From: an uncultured Desulfovibrio sp.
Lineage (GTDB): Bacteria > Desulfobacterota > Desulfovibrionia > Desulfovibrionales > Desulfovibrionaceae
Assembly (NCBI GenBank): GCA_964517635.1
Contig: CAZFCC010000010.1
Coordinates: 7,812 to 71,811, forward strand
DNA: 64,000 bases
Reading direction: 5' to 3'
Every line of letters begins with the position of its first letter. Within the stretch, counting starts at the first letter, position 1. The translations under genes and the position numbers were made by a program. The notes beneath the pieces are model-generated. The model saw only the letters and a program-made list of their open reading frames with translations, had not been told where the DNA came from and made no database searches. Shown here piece after piece: positions 34,363-39,905 of this stretch.

Positions 34363-35391
34363 TCAGTTCGAATTGGCTGTGCGCACAAAAACATTATAAG
34401 CCTGTCGACTTTTCTGCGCGGCTTGATTCAGCTCCTGCCGCAACGGGCTGTAAAAACCCTGATCCAGCCCCCGAACCACAAGCGCCTCATAGCGAGCAAC
34501 CTGCTTAAGAAAATCACGATACCCCCGTTCCACCTCGGGAGCAGCCGCGAATGGCGGCTGTCCGGCCCGGCGCAAGCCAGCCTCAAGCTTGCCCCGCACC
34601 TGCTCAAGGGCCTGACGGTCGGGCGTCTGGGCTTTCAACAATTCCGCGGTATTGGAGTACAGACTAAAAATGTTTTTGGCTTCCAGAATCTGCCGCCGGA
34701 GCGGATGCCCGTACAACAGGGCTTCTTCAGCTTTGACGGCCCGCCCTTCCACAAGGGCCAGATAGCTGTTGCGGGCAGTCATAAAACGCTCATGCGCCTT
34801 TTCCAGGCTGGCTGCCAGGGCGCGGCCTTTTACGCCATCATCGCGAACCTCGTCATCCCGCACATAGCGCCCCAGCGCCGCGTAGTCGGCCCGCATGCTC
34901 TGGATGCTCTTTTCCATATCGCCCACCCACTGGGCCAGTGCCGCCACTTCATCCTCGCCGAACATGGCCGCAGTAGCCGCCAGGCGGCGCGCAAGCACCT
35001 TGCCATCGCCGGTGGGCGCAGGGCGCGGGGCCAGCGTCCATTGGCGCAAATAATGGTTCACGTGTTCCATCATGACTTCGGCCTGAACAAAATAGGGCTC
35101 AGCCAGGGTGGCGGCGGCCACATTATAGAAAGCCACAAGCGCATCGGCCTTTTCAAGCTCTTCCTGCGTGGGGGGCGGCCCCTGAACCTGTTCTTCATAG
35201 GGCGCACGATCCTGCGGGGCGCTGTTAGCCGCGCCAGCCGCGTCCGGCTTGCCTTGAGCCTGGTCAGTGTTCTGCGTTTGGCCCGCCTGCTCCTTGCCTG
35301 TGGAAGAGGCGCCTTCATTGCCGCCGGAATCGCAAGCCACAAGAAACAGGGCCACAAGACAGACGGACAGTATAGAGAGTCTTTTTTTCAT
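34363..35391 (-). CDS. Putative lipoprotein (helical; YiiG/DUF3829-like)
   Basis: Lipobox LVAC, low-complexity linker, helical body; family assignment tentative. Confidence 0.7.
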   Translation of the reverse strand: MKKRLSILSVCLVALFLVACDSGGNEGASSTGKEQAGQTQNTDQAQGKPDAAGAANSAPQDRAPYEEQVQGPPPTQEELEKADALVAFYNVAAATLAEPYFVQAEVMMEHVNHYLRQWTLAPRPAPTGDGKVLARRLAATAAMFGEDEVAALAQWVGDMEKSIQSMRADYAALGRYVRDDEVRDDGVKGRALAASLEKAHERFMTARNSYLALVEGRAVKAEEALLYGHPLRRQILEAKNIFSLYSNTAELLKAQTPDRQALEQVRGKLEAGLRRAGQPPFAAAPEVERGYRDFLKQVARYEALVVRGLDQGFYSPLRQELNQAAQKSRQAYNVFVRTANSN

Positions 35392-35448: not shown

Positions 35449-36102
35449 TCAGGCCGAGGCCACGCGGGCCGCAATCCAGTCATTAAGCCCCGTAAGGTCT
35501 TCGGCCCAGGGATAGGCGCTGTCTGAAGCGGGCTTGATGTCTGGCCCAACGCCGTAAAAAAGCGTGCCCACTTCTTCCGCTGCCTGGCGGTCAGTGGGGG
35601 CATCGCCCACCATGAGCACATCCTCCGGGGCCAGGGGCAGCGGGCCCACAATCTCGGCCAAAAGCCGGGCCTTGGCCGGGGGAGAGCCATGAATGGACGT
35701 AAAATAGTGCGCCAGGCCGCGCTCGTGCAATACGGCCAGCACCTCTTCATGCGGCGCGCCGGAACAAACGTAGAGGGGCAGCCTGCCCTTCCAGCTGTCC
35801 AGCACGTCCTTGATACCGGGAATAAGCGGGCAGCGGCGCACTTCGTCCAGGGCGTATTCCGCAAAGAGGCGGCCCAGCTTTTCCGACTCGTCCTGCGTTA
35901 TCTCACGGCCCAGCACCTCGGTGTAAAACCATTCAAACTTCTTGTATCTGCTCACCCCGCCGTGCAGGCTGTGATACATGACAAAGCGATCCTGCGCCTC
36001 CTGGCCGTAAGGTTCGGCGATGCGGGCAAAGGCGCGGGTTTTTACGGGCACACTGTCCAGTATGACACCGTCACAGTCAAAAACAATACATTGCAATGAC
36101 AT
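35449..36102 (-). CDS. HAD-family hydrolase/phosphatase
   Basis: FDCDGVILDS motif I and MVGDAPTD motif IV. Confidence 0.9.
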   Translation of the reverse strand: MSLQCIVFDCDGVILDSVPVKTRAFARIAEPYGQEAQDRFVMYHSLHGGVSRYKKFEWFYTEVLGREITQDESEKLGRLFAEYALDEVRRCPLIPGIKDVLDSWKGRLPLYVCSGAPHEEVLAVLHERGLAHYFTSIHGSPPAKARLLAEIVGPLPLAPEDVLMVGDAPTDRQAAEEVGTLFYGVGPDIKPASDSAYPWAEDLTGLNDWIAARVASA

Positions 36103-36338
36103 AACTATCCTTTTTCTGCATCCGCCGCAGGGCCTGAACTGGCTTTTGGGGCAAGGCGGATGTGTCTGCGCCTATTTGCTATAAGTTTTGCACTTTACTA
36201 CAGAGTAGCCACTGTCTCCATGGGGGCAACTCCGAAGAAAAAAACTTTTTGCGAAAAAAGAGCTCGCTCGTGGCGGGCTGAAAAAACTTTTTGATAAATC
36301 CAGTTATACAAAAACGATCAGGGGGAAGGGGGCCGCCC

Positions 36339-37154
36339 CTAAGACGTATGCCCGCCCGTGTGCGGGCCGCTCTGCCCGCGCATGCCGATGAGCCGGGCGG
36401 GAACGCCGCCCACGATGCTGAAGGGGGCCACGTTACGGGTGACCACGGCCCCCGCGCCCACCACAGCGCCGCGCCCGATGCGCACATCGGGCGTAATAAC
36501 GCAGTTGGCCCCTATCCATACGTCTTCTTCAATAACAATTTCGCCCGGCACGTGGCCCTGATACATCATGGGCACGTCCTGACGGGCTGTGCAATGATTG
36601 GCCGCGCGTATGACCGTTCCCGGCCCCACGGCCGTGTGCGCGCCGATTTCAATACGGCCCGCATCGGCCCCCACATGCACATAGGGTGACAGAGCCACGC
36701 TGTCGTGCAGCACCAGTTCGCCGTCTGTGGCCGTGATAAAACAACCGCGGCCAAGACGCACGTTGTTGCCAAAGCGCATGCCCCGGCAACCCGCAAGGCT
36801 CAGGCCCGTGCCAAAACGCACCGAGCCGCAGCGGGCAAAAAGCCAGCGCCAGCCCGCAAGCCGCAGCGCCAGCCCCACGGGCGTGGGTATCCAGCCGAGC
36901 AGGGCTATCCACAACTCTTCCAACGCCGCGCCAAGGCGGCGGCGCCAACCCGGCGCGCCATGCCCCGGCGCCGCAGAATCGGCTCCCGCAGAACCGGCCC
37001 CAGCAGAAGCTGATGCGCCAGAACATGAAGAGGCGCATGGCGAGGCGGCAGGGCCAGCCGCTTTAGCCGCCCCAGAGCACGAAGAGGCGGCAGGGTCAGC
37101 CGCTTTGGCCGCCCCGCCCTCTTGCGCCATGCCCGTTTTTTCGAGCTCGGCCAT
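36339..37154 (-). CDS. Left-handed beta-helix (hexapeptide) O-acyltransferase
   Basis: IVIEEDVWIGANCVITPDVRIGRGAVVGAGAVVT and GGVPAR; low-complexity N-terminus. Confidence 0.88.
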   Translation of the reverse strand: MAELEKTGMAQEGGAAKAADPAASSCSGAAKAAGPAASPCASSCSGASASAGAGSAGADSAAPGHGAPGWRRRLGAALEELWIALLGWIPTPVGLALRLAGWRWLFARCGSVRFGTGLSLAGCRGMRFGNNVRLGRGCFITATDGELVLHDSVALSPYVHVGADAGRIEIGAHTAVGPGTVIRAANHCTARQDVPMMYQGHVPGEIVIEEDVWIGANCVITPDVRIGRGAVVGAGAVVTRNVAPFSIVGGVPARLIGMRGQSGPHTGGHTS

Positions 37155-37155
37155 A

Positions 37156-37926
37156 CTACTTGCTGTATCCCTTCATGAGGTCGTCACCTTCCATCAGGCG
37201 GCAAACGCGCACGAGATCTTCGGGCGTGTCCACGCTCCAGGTGCGGCTGGCCGTGGGAACCATGCGCACTTTTTCCCCGTACTCAAGAATACGCAGCATA
37301 TCCACAGACTCGTAGATCTCCAGGGGGCTTTCTTCCATTTCGTTAAAGCGCAGCAGATAATCGCGGCGGAAAGGAATAATGCAGACCTGCTTGCGCATGG
37401 GAACCTTGTCCGAACCTTTTTTACGCGAAGGAATGGGCTCGCGCGAGAAGTAGAGGGCGTTGTTGAACTTGTCTACCACCACCTTGACTTCATTGGGGTC
37501 TTCAAATTCTTCAAGGGTGTCCATATCAGCCATGAGGTTGGTCACGTTGATGGACGGATCAGCCAGCATGGGGGCCACGGCGGCGTCGATCATCTCGGGG
37601 CGCACCATGGGCTCGTCGCCCTGCACCATAACCACGATGTCGGCCTTTTTGCCGGTGGCGGCTTCGATCTTGAGCAGGGCTTCCGCCGTGCGCGTAGAAC
37701 AGCGCACGTGGTGGTCGCCGGTCATGACGCAGGGCAGGCCTGCATCCCTGCAGTAATTTTCGATAATTTCATCGCAGGTGGCCACATAGGTGGATGAAAG
37801 CGTCTTGCTCATGCCCGTGCGAAAGGCCACGTGGCCCACCATGGGCACATTGTGGATGAGCGCAAGCGGCTTGCCGGGATAGCGGCTGGATCCCATGCGC
37901 GCGGGAATAATGGCGATAATGTTCAT
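37156..37926 (-). CDS. KdsB-family cytidylyltransferase
   Basis: IIPARMGSSRYPGKPL, VMVQGDEP, ALYFSREPIP, ESVDMLR and SVDTPED. Confidence 0.9.
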   Translation of the reverse strand: MNIIAIIPARMGSSRYPGKPLALIHNVPMVGHVAFRTGMSKTLSSTYVATCDEIIENYCRDAGLPCVMTGDHHVRCSTRTAEALLKIEAATGKKADIVVMVQGDEPMVRPEMIDAAVAPMLADPSINVTNLMADMDTLEEFEDPNEVKVVVDKFNNALYFSREPIPSRKKGSDKVPMRKQVCIIPFRRDYLLRFNEMEESPLEIYESVDMLRILEYGEKVRMVPTASRTWSVDTPEDLVRVCRLMEGDDLMKGYSK

Positions 37927-38051
37927 GTAGCGGCTCCTTATGGCCTCAAATTTTCAGAAATATCTGTAGCATGCGCCACCGGACAGGCTTTTTGGCAAAA
38001 AACCTTCCCGGACAAAAAAGCTGTGTGCAATCAGCGCCTGGAGCAGGTCGC

Positions 38052-38187
38052 CTTTGAAAATATACATTTTCCAAGGTGTCATTCTGCCGAGAAATACGAT
38101 TTTCGGCTGAATCTACGCCGCGTTGCGGCGCGCTGTACTCTCGTGCAGCGTTAGAGCATTTACCTTTTTCAAAGTTAAATTGCTCTA
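38052..38187 (-). repeat. MITE-like element, family C type 3; terminus is the epimerase stop
   Basis: Minus strand TAGAGCAATTTAACTTTGAAAAAGGTAAATGCTCTAA hairpin; CTTTGAAAA inverted at both ends. Confidence 0.6.
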
Positions 38188-39099
38188 GTCGTCTGTGGCC
38201 ACGAGATAGCCGCCCTCAGACGCCAGCTCCGGGTGCATTTCCTTATGCTCTTCTTCCATAACGCGCAGGATGCCCTGCCCGAGATCCACCGTAAGCGGCG
38301 GCACAAGCTTGCGCCCCACCTTGGGCATAAAGGCATAGGGCGTTACCTGATAATGCCCGCTGTTGGGGTCGTTTTGATAATTGATAACCAGATCCTTGCG
38401 CAACATTTCGCCGATCATCTTGAAAAGGTCGCCAACCCGCATGGGCTGATTGCCGGAGATGATGATATTCTGATTTTCAAATTCGGGATCCAGCACGGCC
38501 AGGGTGGCGGCGCTGGCATCGTCCACATGCACGTATTCGCGCAGGGCCGTGGGCGCGCCGTAATAGGTGATGCCGCCGGTGGAAAGCGCTTCGTACACAA
38601 AGCGGTTGATGGCGTTGCGCCTGTCTGAGCGGGGGCCGTATAGCGAGCCGTAGCGCAGAATAGTGTAGGGCAGATTGTGCATGGCCTGATAGTTTTCAAT
38701 ATATAATTCGCAGGCCTGCTTGCTACAACGGTAAAACCCGCCCGACTTGCCATATACATATAAGGAGCTGGCAAAGACATAACGCTTGACCTTGGCCAGG
38801 CGGCAGGCTTCAAGAATCATGACATTGCCGAGGACGTTGATGCGCGCCGTGTCCACCGGGCGGTTATTGGCTTCGCCGATGTCGGCTATGCCCGCGTAGT
38901 TGAACACCATGTCTGCGCCTTCCACAGCGCTGCGCACGGTTTCTTCGTCAAGGATATTCCCCGTGAGCATGGTCTGGTCAGGCCGCAGCCAGGGGGAGGG
39001 ATGCAGGTCTACCATGGTGACAGCGTGCCCGGCATCGGAAAGCTTATCGCAAATATGCGAACCCAGAAAACCGGATCCGCCAAAAACAGTTATTTTCAC
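38185..39099 (-). CDS. NAD-dependent epimerase/dehydratase (extended SDR)
   Basis: GGSGFLG, YRCSK (YxxxK) and LRYGSLYGP; GTG start. Confidence 0.9.
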   Translation of the reverse strand: MKITVFGGSGFLGSHICDKLSDAGHAVTMVDLHPSPWLRPDQTMLTGNILDEETVRSAVEGADMVFNYAGIADIGEANNRPVDTARINVLGNVMILEACRLAKVKRYVFASSLYVYGKSGGFYRCSKQACELYIENYQAMHNLPYTILRYGSLYGPRSDRRNAINRFVYEALSTGGITYYGAPTALREYVHVDDASAATLAVLDPEFENQNIIISGNQPMRVGDLFKMIGEMLRKDLVINYQNDPNSGHYQVTPYAFMPKVGRKLVPPLTVDLGQGILRVMEEEHKEMHPELASEGGYLVATDD

Positions 39100-39101
39100 A
39101 G

Positions 39102-39905
39102 TTATTCTCCCTGATCCGGCCGCTCAGCAGCATGCCAGAGAAAGACGGAATCAATGCCATATGCAATAAAGCGGCTGCCTGCCGCGATCTGCCTCTTGAG
39201 CTCGGCCGGGTCGGGCTGCACAATATGCAAGCCCATGCGGGCCTTGTGGCGAACGCAGGCCGCAGCGATGCGCTCCATGGCCGCCTTGAAGTCCTTATGA
39301 TCAAACTGGCCCGTAAGCCCCATGGAGCCGGAAAGGTCGTAGGGGCCAACCATGATGGCGTCCAGGCGCGGGTGCGAGAGGATGGCGTCCAGGTTTTCCA
39401 CAGCACGGATATGCTCTATCTGCGCCACAAGAAATATTTCTGGCGCCAGGGAATTGCGATAGGCGTCAAAGTTTTTTCCAAAGGTGTTGGCTCGGCAAAA
39501 ACCCACGCCCCTGTACTCGTCGGCGGTTTCTCCGGCAGCGCGCCAATGATCCTGGCCAGGGTAAACAGCCCAGTCAATGGCGCGATCCAGTTGTTCGCGG
39601 CTTTCAATCATGGGAAAAATCAGCCCCTGAGCGCCCGCCTCAAGAGCGGACTTGATCTGGGTTTTCCCGGCTTCGGGCAGGCGGGCAAAGGGCGCTGCCC
39701 CGCCGCATTCGATGGCCCGGAAGATGCCCGGCAACCCGGTGCGGCCAAAGGAGCCGTGTTCCATATCCACAGCCACCCAATCATAGCCCGCTCGAGCCAT
39801 AAGCTCCGCCACATCAGCAGAGGGCAACTGCAGCCATGTGCCTACCGTGGCTTTGTCCGCAGCCAGAAGCGCGCGTATTTCGTGTACGGTCATATCAAAC
39901 GGCAT
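39102..39905 (-). CDS. HpcH/HpaI-family class II pyruvate aldolase
   Basis: WVAVDMEHG, LEAGAQG.IFPMI, VAQIEH and MVGPYDLSGSMG. Confidence 0.9.
   Translation of the reverse strand: MPFDMTVHEIRALLAADKATVGTWLQLPSADVAELMARAGYDWVAVDMEHGSFGRTGLPGIFRAIECGGAAPFARLPEAGKTQIKSALEAGAQGLIFPMIESREQLDRAIDWAVYPGQDHWRAAGETADEYRGVGFCRANTFGKNFDAYRNSLAPEIFLVAQIEHIRAVENLDAILSHPRLDAIMVGPYDLSGSMGLTGQFDHKDFKAAMERIAAACVRHKARMGLHIVQPDPAELKRQIAAGSRFIAYGIDSVFLWHAAERPDQGE

Follow-up and report, generated by a model that had tools for sequence, protein, structure and literature searches.

What does a Desulfovibrio genome that has no genes for lipid A do with a CMP-sugar enzyme of the KdsB family, encoded next to a pyruvate aldolase? 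The question is raised by five co-oriented genes that, according to the ORF calls, span exactly positions 35449-39905 on the minus strand of the window, i.e., the whole 64,000-nucleotide stretch of DNA analysed here. The answer that we consider the best, and hold to be rather probable, is that these genes represent, in this genome, a conserved cassette whose product is a 2-keto-3-deoxy sugar acid, distinct from Kdo and activated with CMP.

The first gene of the run (39102..39905) codes for a metal-dependent (class II) pyruvate aldolase of the HpcH/HpaI family (267 aa, PF03328), and is followed after 2 nt by an extended short-chain dehydrogenase/reductase (SDR) of NDP-sugar epimerase/dehydratase type (38185..39099, 304 aa, PF01370). 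A spacer of 258 nt (37927..38184), read directly from the sequence, contains the AAGGAG ribosome-binding site of the next gene, which encodes the KdsB-like cytidylyltransferase (37156..37926, 256 aa, NF009905 and PF02348). The fourth gene, for a left-handed β-helix (hexapeptide) acetyltransferase of WcaF/WbbJ type (36339..37154, 271 aa), lies 1 nt further on, and the fifth, after another 236 nt, specifies a HAD-IA phosphatase (35449..36102, 217 aa, PF00702 and TIGR01549). Conservation in the acetyltransferase begins only at about residue 71, after a low-complexity extension of some 70 residues that is specific to the species; the only in-frame starts upstream of the conserved portion are the ATG codons 1 and 9, so that the gap to the KdsB-like gene is either 1 or 25 nt. 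A scan of the locus for promoters and terminators gave no signal above chance, and this includes the search for a terminator in the 258-nt spacer. The gene arrangement described in the initial annotation, with gaps of 1-2 nt in two pairs of genes, is thus borne out, and so is the lack of a KdsA- or NeuB-type synthase and of a glycosyltransferase alongside: profiles of DAHP_synth_1/KdsA, NeuB and glycosyltransferases have no match in the part of the window from 27 kb to 47 kb, about 7 kb around the cassette.

Downstream of the HAD gene (34363..35391, minus strand) is a gene for a 342-aa protein with a lipobox-containing signal peptide (LVAC) and a helical body, which has no Pfam or NCBIfam match. 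Its homologues, 27-78% identical, come after the HAD gene in genomes of the genus. We tried this protein as a candidate for the missing transferase and rejected it because it is a secreted lipoprotein; its membership in the pathway is doubtful.

Do the five genes belong together? Their order is kept in about 60 species-level genomes of Desulfovibrio while the outer flanks change, and therefore the cassette is not a chance neighbourhood. Among 151 Desulfovibrionaceae genomes drawn as a sample, 53 have an orthologue of the aldolase and 51 have the cassette-type KdsB-like gene, with both present in 48; the exceptions to the pairing are mostly fragmentary assemblies. The acetyltransferase is syntenic in most Desulfovibrionaceae cassettes, also in a clustering of the ORFs of this GC-rich DNA with a GC3 filter, and the HAD gene is syntenic across the family. 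Two other phyla have the core as well. A Leptospira genome contains homologues of the SDR (44% identity), HAD (29%), aldolase (48%) and KdsB-like protein (57%), the latter with the same residue signature as described below, and in a Prochlorococcus genome a SIS isomerase, HAD, aldolase and KdsB-like gene are found together; in both, the HAD gene adjoins the aldolase gene, and the aldolase orthologues of these two genomes, like those of Desulfovibrionaceae, have the KdsB-like gene beside them. This synteny and co-occurrence strengthen the initial proposal of a biosynthetic route that pairs an HpcH-type aldolase with a CMP-transferase of the KdsB family and has no PEP-dependent synthase, and they show the unit to be conserved.

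A metagenomic fusion protein, P0320, joins a cytidylyltransferase to an HpcH aldolase, and could be taken as direct Rosetta-stone evidence; its cytidylyltransferase half, however, is of NeuA rather than KdsB type, and so it supports only the general pairing of the two activities. In three of the sampled genomes (G150, G042 and G109) there is a relative of the aldolase at 39-42% identity; the KdsB family is represented in G150 by the canonical type alone, and in G042 and G109 by no match whatever. It follows that this branch of aldolases does not invariably go with CMP activation. The relatives in G150 and G109 sit with genes of 2-hydroxyacid dehydrogenases and SDRs.

Catabolism is the setting in which HpcH aldolases are best known, and the reaction that they catalyse can run in both directions. 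It may be supposed that the aldolase of the cassette degrades a keto-deoxy acid and that the other genes are only its neighbours. The named equivalogs closest to it, HpaI, GarL and RhmA, are indeed catabolic, and two gaps of about 250 nt break the run. All the same, we regard this as very improbable, given the conserved gene order, the presence of the core in two other phyla, the absence around the cassette of the transporter, kinase, dehydratase or regulator typical of catabolic loci, and the scores of the aldolase itself. It matches the HpcH_HpaI domain of Pfam with 105.6 bits, and falls far under the NCBIfam cut-offs for the HpaI/GarL/RhmA equivalogs (135.8 against 368.8, 117.1 against 393, 113.1 against 406.75, and 102.3 against 441), i.e., at about one third of the required values. 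Its place in class II of the HpcH/HpaI family is nonetheless clear from the domain match and from the motifs EH, R-(L/V)-P, Q-I-E and G-P-x-D-L, which align with 1DXE and with HpaI structures (4B5S) and preserve the catalytic His and Arg and the Glu and Asp that serve as acidic metal ligands; the roles of these residues are presumably the ones established for GarL and HpaI. The fold and the chemistry, in which pyruvate and an aldehyde stand in equilibrium with a 4-hydroxy-2-keto acid, are likewise shared with HpaI, GarL and YfaU/RhmA, but those enzymes belong to degradation operons and the aldolase studied here is tied to a CMP-transferase.

The KdsB-like enzyme belongs to the CTP_transf_3 fold (PF02348, 142.4 bits) and scores above the cut-offs of two curated KdsB models (NF009905, 332 bits with a cut-off of 255, and NF003952, 259 bits with a cut-off of 193), and is below the cut-off of the equivalog TIGR00466 (144 versus 155.2 bits). 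Its best solved relative is the capsule-type enzyme K-CKS/KpsU (1GQ9). In the phylogenetic tree, which the initial annotation had suggested as a check, the sequences of the cassette form a clade separated from canonical KdsB by a branch with 100/100 support, and genomes with kdsA have both types, the canonical kdsB often adjoining kdsA and sharing 35-42% identity with the cassette copy; the two are paralogues rather than orthologues. Residues involved in catalysis and in CTP and metal binding (R10, R15, K19, Q98, D100 and D225 in E. coli; R10, R15, K19, Q102, D104 and D233 here) are invariant in both clades.

The sugar pocket is another matter. The cassette enzymes have R75, C76, N130, Q180, I184, P185 and D209-M210 in place of, respectively, Ser, Gly, Thr, His, Tyr, Ala and Glu-Gln of the canonical ones; these changes hold in 22-25 of the 25 cassette sequences, and the canonical states in 11-12 of 12. 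For Q180, I184 and D209-M210 the count is 23-25 of 25, with His, Tyr and Glu-Gln found in all 12 canonical sequences. The replaced positions include His181 and the Glu-Gln pair of the LEQLR motif of E. coli KdsB, which we take to contact Kdo, and Tyr185, the counterpart of I184. The latter residue makes a hydrogen bond to the C5 hydroxyl of Kdo in the E. coli enzyme (PMC12199768). Since the enzyme is a paralogue in its own right, its sugar pocket has been remodelled, and it coexists with canonical kdsA and kdsB in other genera, its substrate is probably not Kdo, as had been proposed from the first reading of the locus.

Profile searches of the genome, which is 99.97% complete, detect no KdsA, KdsD, WaaA, LpxA, LpxB, LpxC, LptD or KpsC/S, and no valid match to PF00793, TIGR01362, TIGR00393 or PF04413. 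Hence the canonical route to Kdo and the LPS inner core (KdsA, KdsD, KdsC-type phosphatase, WaaA) is missing, and within the genus LpxC was found in none of 75 good genomes. The KdsB-family gene of the cassette is the only one in the genome; two other CTP_transf_3 genes lie elsewhere, and the single NeuB gene is located on another contig (C2). The initial annotation would have given up its proposal if this were the sole kdsB, acting on Kdo, beside a catabolic aldolase that is not conserved with it. We do see a single KdsB-family gene, but the aldolase is strongly conserved together with it, and the genome offers no Kdo pathway that the enzyme could serve. A canonical kdsA/kdsB pair, sought at the same suggestion, is absent here and present in other genera of Desulfovibrionaceae. 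Of the destinations then suggested for the product, LPS is unlikely, because the genes for lipid A, Kdo-transferase and the Lpt system that were looked for are missing from this genome; they are missing also from the searched genomes of the genus.

Could the cassette nevertheless be a Kdo pathway in disguise? The aldolase might act as a Kdo aldolase in reverse, adding pyruvate to D-arabinose or its 5-phosphate, with the HAD protein substituting for KdsC and CMP-Kdo being passed to a polymer other than LPS. The genus lacks KdsA and yet keeps a KdsB-family gene that exceeds the NCBIfam KdsB subfamily cut-off, and thiobarbiturate-positive 'Kdo' has been reported in cell-envelope extracts of D. 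desulfuricans (PMC3354558). We think such a scheme unlikely in view of the replacement of the Kdo-contacting residues throughout the cassette clade, the lack of KdsD (arabinose-5-phosphate isomerase), WaaA and KpsC/S, and the occurrence of the cassette beside a complete kdsA/kdsB pair in many genera. This last observation also led us to reject a simple replacement of KdsA by the aldolase.

For a sugar acid other than Kdo, the following course of events is suggested by the protein families. The class II aldolase would join pyruvate to an aldose, free or phosphorylated, giving the skeleton of an ulosonic acid and taking the role that a PEP-dependent synthase, KdsA or NeuB, has in the known pathways. 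The HAD-IA phosphatase may dephosphorylate either the precursor or what results from the condensation, and the KdsB-like enzyme would link the sugar acid to CMP. The SDR (PF01370, 148.9 bits), whose best solved relatives are UDP-hexose 4-epimerases, could epimerise the sugar or modify it by a redox reaction, and the acetyltransferase (Hexapep, 56.7 bits; below the cut-offs of the WbbJ, WcaF and NeuD-type models) could O-acetylate it. As the genome has no genes for lipid A, Kdo-transferase or Lpt, the acceptor would have to be something other than LPS, e.g., another glycolipid, a capsule-like polymer or a glycoprotein, and the transferase would be encoded outside the cassette. Counting against this scheme are the familiar catabolic role and the reversible reaction of HpcH aldolases, the lack of a glycosyltransferase in or beside the cassette, and the type of the phosphatase. 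The latter, which has 74.4 bits with PF00702 and barely passes the TIGR01549 (HAD-IA) cut-off, fits the IA model and not the IIIA model, and is unlike the KdsC/NANP type of known ulosonic acid pathways.

The resemblance to those pathways is partial in other respects as well. With the CMP-Kdo pathway (KdsD, KdsA, KdsC and KdsB, and the capsule duplicates KpsF and KpsU) the cassette shares the addition of a three-carbon unit to an aldose or its phosphate, a phosphatase of the HAD superfamily and a cytidylyltransferase of the KdsB family, but the three-carbon donor enzyme is an HpcH aldolase instead of KdsA, the cytidylyltransferase has altered sugar contacts, an SDR and an acetyltransferase are added, and neither KdsD nor the transferases WaaA, KpsC and KpsS are available. 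With the pathways of nonulosonic acids (NeuB/NeuA; Pse, Leg and KDN) it would have in common a CMP-activated α-keto acid sugar and tailoring by an SDR and a hexapeptide acetyltransferase, and, in the case of the routes to KDN and to animal sialic acids, a phosphatase acting after condensation as well. Here, however, there is no NeuB-type synthase and no aminotransferase, and the cytidylyltransferase is of KdsB, not NeuA, type (21.5 bits with PseF, cut-off 205.7).

A further option is that the activated compound is no glycan component at all, but a small 2-keto or hydroxy acid linked to CMP for a lipid head group, a cofactor or a natural product. There is no glycosyltransferase in or beside the cassette in this genome, and a PGDH-like 2-hydroxyacid dehydrogenase recurs in other copies; both speak for this option. 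We rate it as quite improbable, since the Leptospira, Prochlorococcus and metagenomic cassettes are parts of surface-glycan loci that also encode glycosyltransferases, NeuB and methyltransferases. To our knowledge, all characterised enzymes of the KdsB family act on ring-forming ulosonic acids, which likewise speaks against it.

It is most likely that the cassette of this gut-type Desulfovibrio uses its pyruvate aldolase to build a Kdo-like acidic sugar, which is then activated with CMP. If so, this would be the first biosynthetic route in which a CMP-activated sugar of ulosonic type is made by a pyruvate aldolase and not by a PEP-dependent synthase, and it would set apart a subfamily of KdsB whose substrate is new; the literature that we searched describes neither an aldolase/cytidylyltransferase route nor a loss of lipid A genes. 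Annotation pipelines call the cassette protein KdsB, so that estimates of 'LPS biosynthesis potential' in metagenomes may count Desulfovibrio wrongly. Gut Desulfovibrio are often tied to inflammation through their supposed LPS, an assumption that needs re-examination if they have no lipid A and display another acidic sugar. In a more speculative vein, in Desulfovibrio in the strict sense (as judged by gene content, without lipid A) the product might itself be the thiobarbiturate-positive 'Kdo' that has long been reported from D. desulfuricans 'LPS', serving as the head-group sugar of an outer-membrane glycolipid not based on lipid A. We give this idea little weight; were it true, 'Desulfovibrio endotoxin' would have been blamed on a surface molecule that differs chemically from LPS.

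One genome in our sample (G074), which we take to be D. vulgaris Hildenborough, has the aldolase, SDR, KdsB-like, acetyltransferase, PGDH-like dehydrogenase and HAD genes, in this order, at a locus presumably around DVU0338-DVU0343, with 57-79% identity to the proteins of the window where shared. Unlike the genome studied here, it also has kdsA, canonical kdsB, lpxA and lptD. Mutants and transposon libraries exist for this strain, making the question directly testable. Deletion of its HAD gene, DVU0338, caused no auxotrophy, and the homologue from D. vulgaris Miyazaki, DvMF_1903 (77% identical), did not complement an E. coli serB mutant (PMC5764234).

The PGDH-like gene, found in most other cassettes, is missing from the window's copy and has no close copy elsewhere in the genome; this counts against the main reading, and the pathway here may be incomplete or altered. 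Large proteins encoded beside other cassettes were considered as the transferase: a 575-aa protein of locus L124 matches a protein cluster (cluster 18) present in some Desulfovibrionaceae, but homologues of both are lacking in this genome, and they were rejected for that reason. Accessory genes vary by lineage, and include GmhA-like SIS, GFO/IDH/MocA, PGDH-like, DHQ-synthase-like and Glucosamine_iso proteins; we tried to name the sugar from them and gave this up, as they do not converge on one precursor across lineages. A GmhA-like gene is present in the genome studied here, in a housekeeping context.

The initial annotation described five co-oriented genes at 35449-39905, and five minus-strand ORFs occupy exactly these coordinates, with all family assignments upheld by Pfam and NCBIfam profile searches: an HpcH_HpaI family aldolase (39905-39102), an SDR (39099-38185), a KdsB-like cytidylyltransferase (37926-37156), a hexapeptide acetyltransferase (37154-36339) and a HAD phosphatase of subfamily IA (36102-35449). 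Intergenic gaps along the cassette, from the aldolase to the HAD gene, are 2, 258, 1 and 236 nt. On one side lie a cytochrome/NrfD redox complex, a diaminopropionate ammonia-lyase and a lipoprotein; on the other, a MoeA-PBP fusion, an Fe-ADH-like gene, a TOBE protein and an M48 peptidase. Profile searches of the cassette and its flanks found no KdsA- or NeuB-type synthase and no glycosyltransferase, as had been noted at the outset. The acetyltransferase has an N-terminal extension of about 70 residues, low in complexity and rich in Ala, Ser and Gly (36924-37154, minus strand), which is absent in relatives; none of the start codons checked trims it and spares conserved sequence. The spacers at 36103-36338 and 37927-38184 contain A/T-rich palindromic stretches, e.g. 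...CAAAAAGTTTTTT.... The lipoprotein (34363-35391, minus strand) has a lipobox and no family match; in almost every genome of the genus its gene lies 3' of the HAD gene, and its homologues there share only 27-78% identity; it evolves fast.

A scan with the aldolase gave 78 loci. The order aldolase, SDR, KdsB-like, acetyltransferase, HAD, lipoprotein is kept in about 60 Desulfovibrio species genomes, while the outer neighbours are common only to the closest relatives (tblastn with window proteins). Of 151 evenly drawn Desulfovibrionaceae genomes, 53 have an aldolase orthologue (38-100% identity), 51 a cassette-type KdsB-like gene (44-100% identity) and 48 both, mostly adjacent, so that the aldolase is co-conserved, contrary to a possibility raised in the initial annotation. 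The mismatches are mostly fragmentary assemblies; three genomes have a 39-42% identical aldolase relative and no cassette-type KdsB-like gene. As to whether kdsA exists elsewhere, it is found in 116 of the 151 genomes and not in that of the window. Many of the KdsA-bearing genomes also hold the cassette, which is therefore not a mere substitute for KdsA. In most Desulfovibrionaceae outside the genus, the cassette has an additional gene, for a PGDH-like 2-hydroxyacid dehydrogenase, which separates those of the acetyltransferase and the HAD; a close copy of it is missing from the window's genome (best match, 36% identity). In two genera, the cassette also includes genes for a GmhA-like isomerase, a GFO/IDH/MocA oxidoreductase and a cyclase-family protein. 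A GmhA-like SIS_2 protein, 37% identical to this isomerase, is encoded in the window's genome on contig C7 (4272-4904), between the genes for NAD kinase and porphobilinogen deaminase, in a genome devoid of LPS genes.

The KdsB-like protein is a paralogue of canonical KdsB. Identity to the window's protein is bimodal, at least 44% for cassette copies and 35-42% for a second copy, which occurs in kdsA-bearing genomes and often abuts kdsA. In a maximum-likelihood tree built from 25 sequences linked to cassettes and 12 canonical ones, a phylogeny that the initial annotation had called for, the two groups are separated with 100/100 support. Both retain R10, R15, K19, Q102, D104 and D233, whereas the cassette group has fixed R75 (canonical S), C76 (G), N130 (T), Q180 (H), C182 (G), I184 (Y), P185 (A) and D209-M210 (E-Q of the LEQLR motif). 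In the alignment, I184 takes the place of E. coli Y185; in a model built on PDB structure 3K8D this Tyr, together with Q98, hydrogen-bonds the C5 hydroxyl of Kdo (PMC12199768). The residue signature, examined on sequences from Desulfovibrionaceae, Leptospira and Prochlorococcus, is the main argument suggesting a substrate other than Kdo; loss of the Tyr, replacement of Gln by Met in the LEQLR motif and the new Arg at position 75 suggest that it differs from Kdo in the C5 substituent and the tail. The non-Kdo product proposed earlier thus gains support both from paralogue status and from the altered sugar pocket. Against NF009905, an NCBIfam model for a KdsB subfamily, the window's protein scores 332 bits, above the cut-off of 255. 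Cassette-type proteins in general reach about 330 bits with this model, versus 258-287 bits for canonical KdsB proteins from the order. The cassette clade may lie at the centre of the model, in which case automatic annotation would call cassette-type proteins KdsB.

The aldolase scores about one third of what is required for the HpaI, GarL or RhmA equivalogs. Alignment with GarL (1DXE) and HpaI (4B5S) shows conservation of the His, the catalytic Arg and two acidic metal ligands, and the enzyme therefore looks active. The most economical reading is a sequence of steps mirroring the Kdo pathway. The aldolase would condense pyruvate with an aldose or aldose phosphate, the HAD would remove phosphate before or after this step, and the KdsB-like enzyme would activate the acid with CMP; the SDR, which is NDP-hexose-epimerase-like and conserved across phyla, and the WcaF-type acetyltransferase would tailor it. 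A literature search found no paper on an aldolase and KdsB-like cassette.

Close matches to the window come from Desulfovibrio sensu stricto (D. falkowii, 96-98% identity; D. desulfuricans and D. piger, 80-92%). In the window's own genome assembly (2.76 Mb, 99.97% complete) there is no valid match to KdsA (PF00793, TIGR01362), KdsD (TIGR00393), WaaA (PF04413), LpxA (TIGR01852), LpxB, LpxC, LptD or KpsC/S, and tblastn with the LpxC protein of a relative is likewise negative. This is not an accident of assembly, since no LpxC was found in the 75 genus members with a completeness of 90% or more, several closed genomes included. KdsA is present in 2 of 18 genomes of the genus, and LpxC and KdsA are both present in all 12 genomes sampled from other families of the order. 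Judging from gene content, Desulfovibrio sensu stricto does not seem capable of lipid A synthesis, and the KdsB-like gene cannot act in the usual Kdo-lipid A pathway in this organism; a literature search found no paper reporting lipid A gene loss in Desulfovibrio. The cassette is a predicted, uncharacterised variant of CMP-ulosonic acid biosynthesis whose product is not destined for LPS in this organism; the earlier interpretation is supported in part, for biosynthesis of a probably non-Kdo acid, and the LPS destination is not supported.

Two other CTP_transf_3 genes of the same genome adjoin on contig C49 (1350-3790), and a NeuB gene is on C2 (71200-71913), which suggests a nonulosonic acid pathway of the conventional kind, distinct from the cassette. 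In a genome of a sister genus (G097), a kdsA-kdsB pair lies side by side (C28:18238-19742) in addition to the cassette, with no match to LpxA or LptD; a Kdo pathway is apparently retained there in the absence of genes for lipid A.

The gene content of the window's genome and of the genus is at odds with the published chemistry of D. desulfuricans "LPS" (PMC3354558, PMC3016211). Lodowska et al. (2012) detected Kdo in an intestinal strain by thiobarbiturate assay and GC-MS of methyl glycosides, reported heptose, glucosamine and 3-hydroxytetradecanoate as well, and cited earlier work claiming the absence of Kdo (PMC3354558). The conflict could possibly be explained by the identity of the strain, by endotoxin carried over from the medium, or by a Kdo-like acid produced by the cassette itself.

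Related cassettes exist outside Desulfovibrionaceae. Leptospira GCA_004769295.1 has consecutive genes for a Glucosamine_iso-like protein, SDR (44% identity to the window protein), HAD (29%), aldolase (48%) and KdsB-like protein (57%) within a large surface-glycan locus, and its KdsB-like copy has a residue signature identical to that of the cassette group. In a single-cell genome of Prochlorococcus, genes for a GmhA-like SIS isomerase, HAD and aldolase are accompanied by a convergent KdsB-like gene, next to NeuB and other glycan genes; in the tree, this KdsB-like copy has a long branch and belongs with the cassette group. In a 478-aa metagenomic protein (P0320; contig L124, 9001-10437), a NeuA-type cytidylyltransferase and an HpcH aldolase are joined in a single chain, amid genes for SIS, GFO/IDH/MocA, 2-hydroxyacid dehydrogenase, SDR, DHQ-synthase-like and two GT2 proteins; its cytidylyltransferase half being NeuA-type, it supports a general aldolase-cytidylyltransferase pairing, not this KdsB clade specifically. 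Accessory genes vary by lineage and do not converge on one precursor.

A six-gene cassette is found at about 384.1-389.2 kb in the genome that we take to be D. vulgaris Hildenborough, which also holds kdsA, canonical kdsB, lpxA and lptD; this links the cassette to a genetically tractable model organism. Price et al. (2018) regarded the dehydrogenase of the locus as the phosphoglycerate dehydrogenase of the serine pathway (PMC5764234). In the same study, the D. vulgaris Miyazaki phosphatase DvMF_1903, cloned in an E. coli serB mutant, did not rescue growth, and a strain deleted for its Hildenborough homologue DVU0338 (77% identical) grew in defined medium (PMC5764234).
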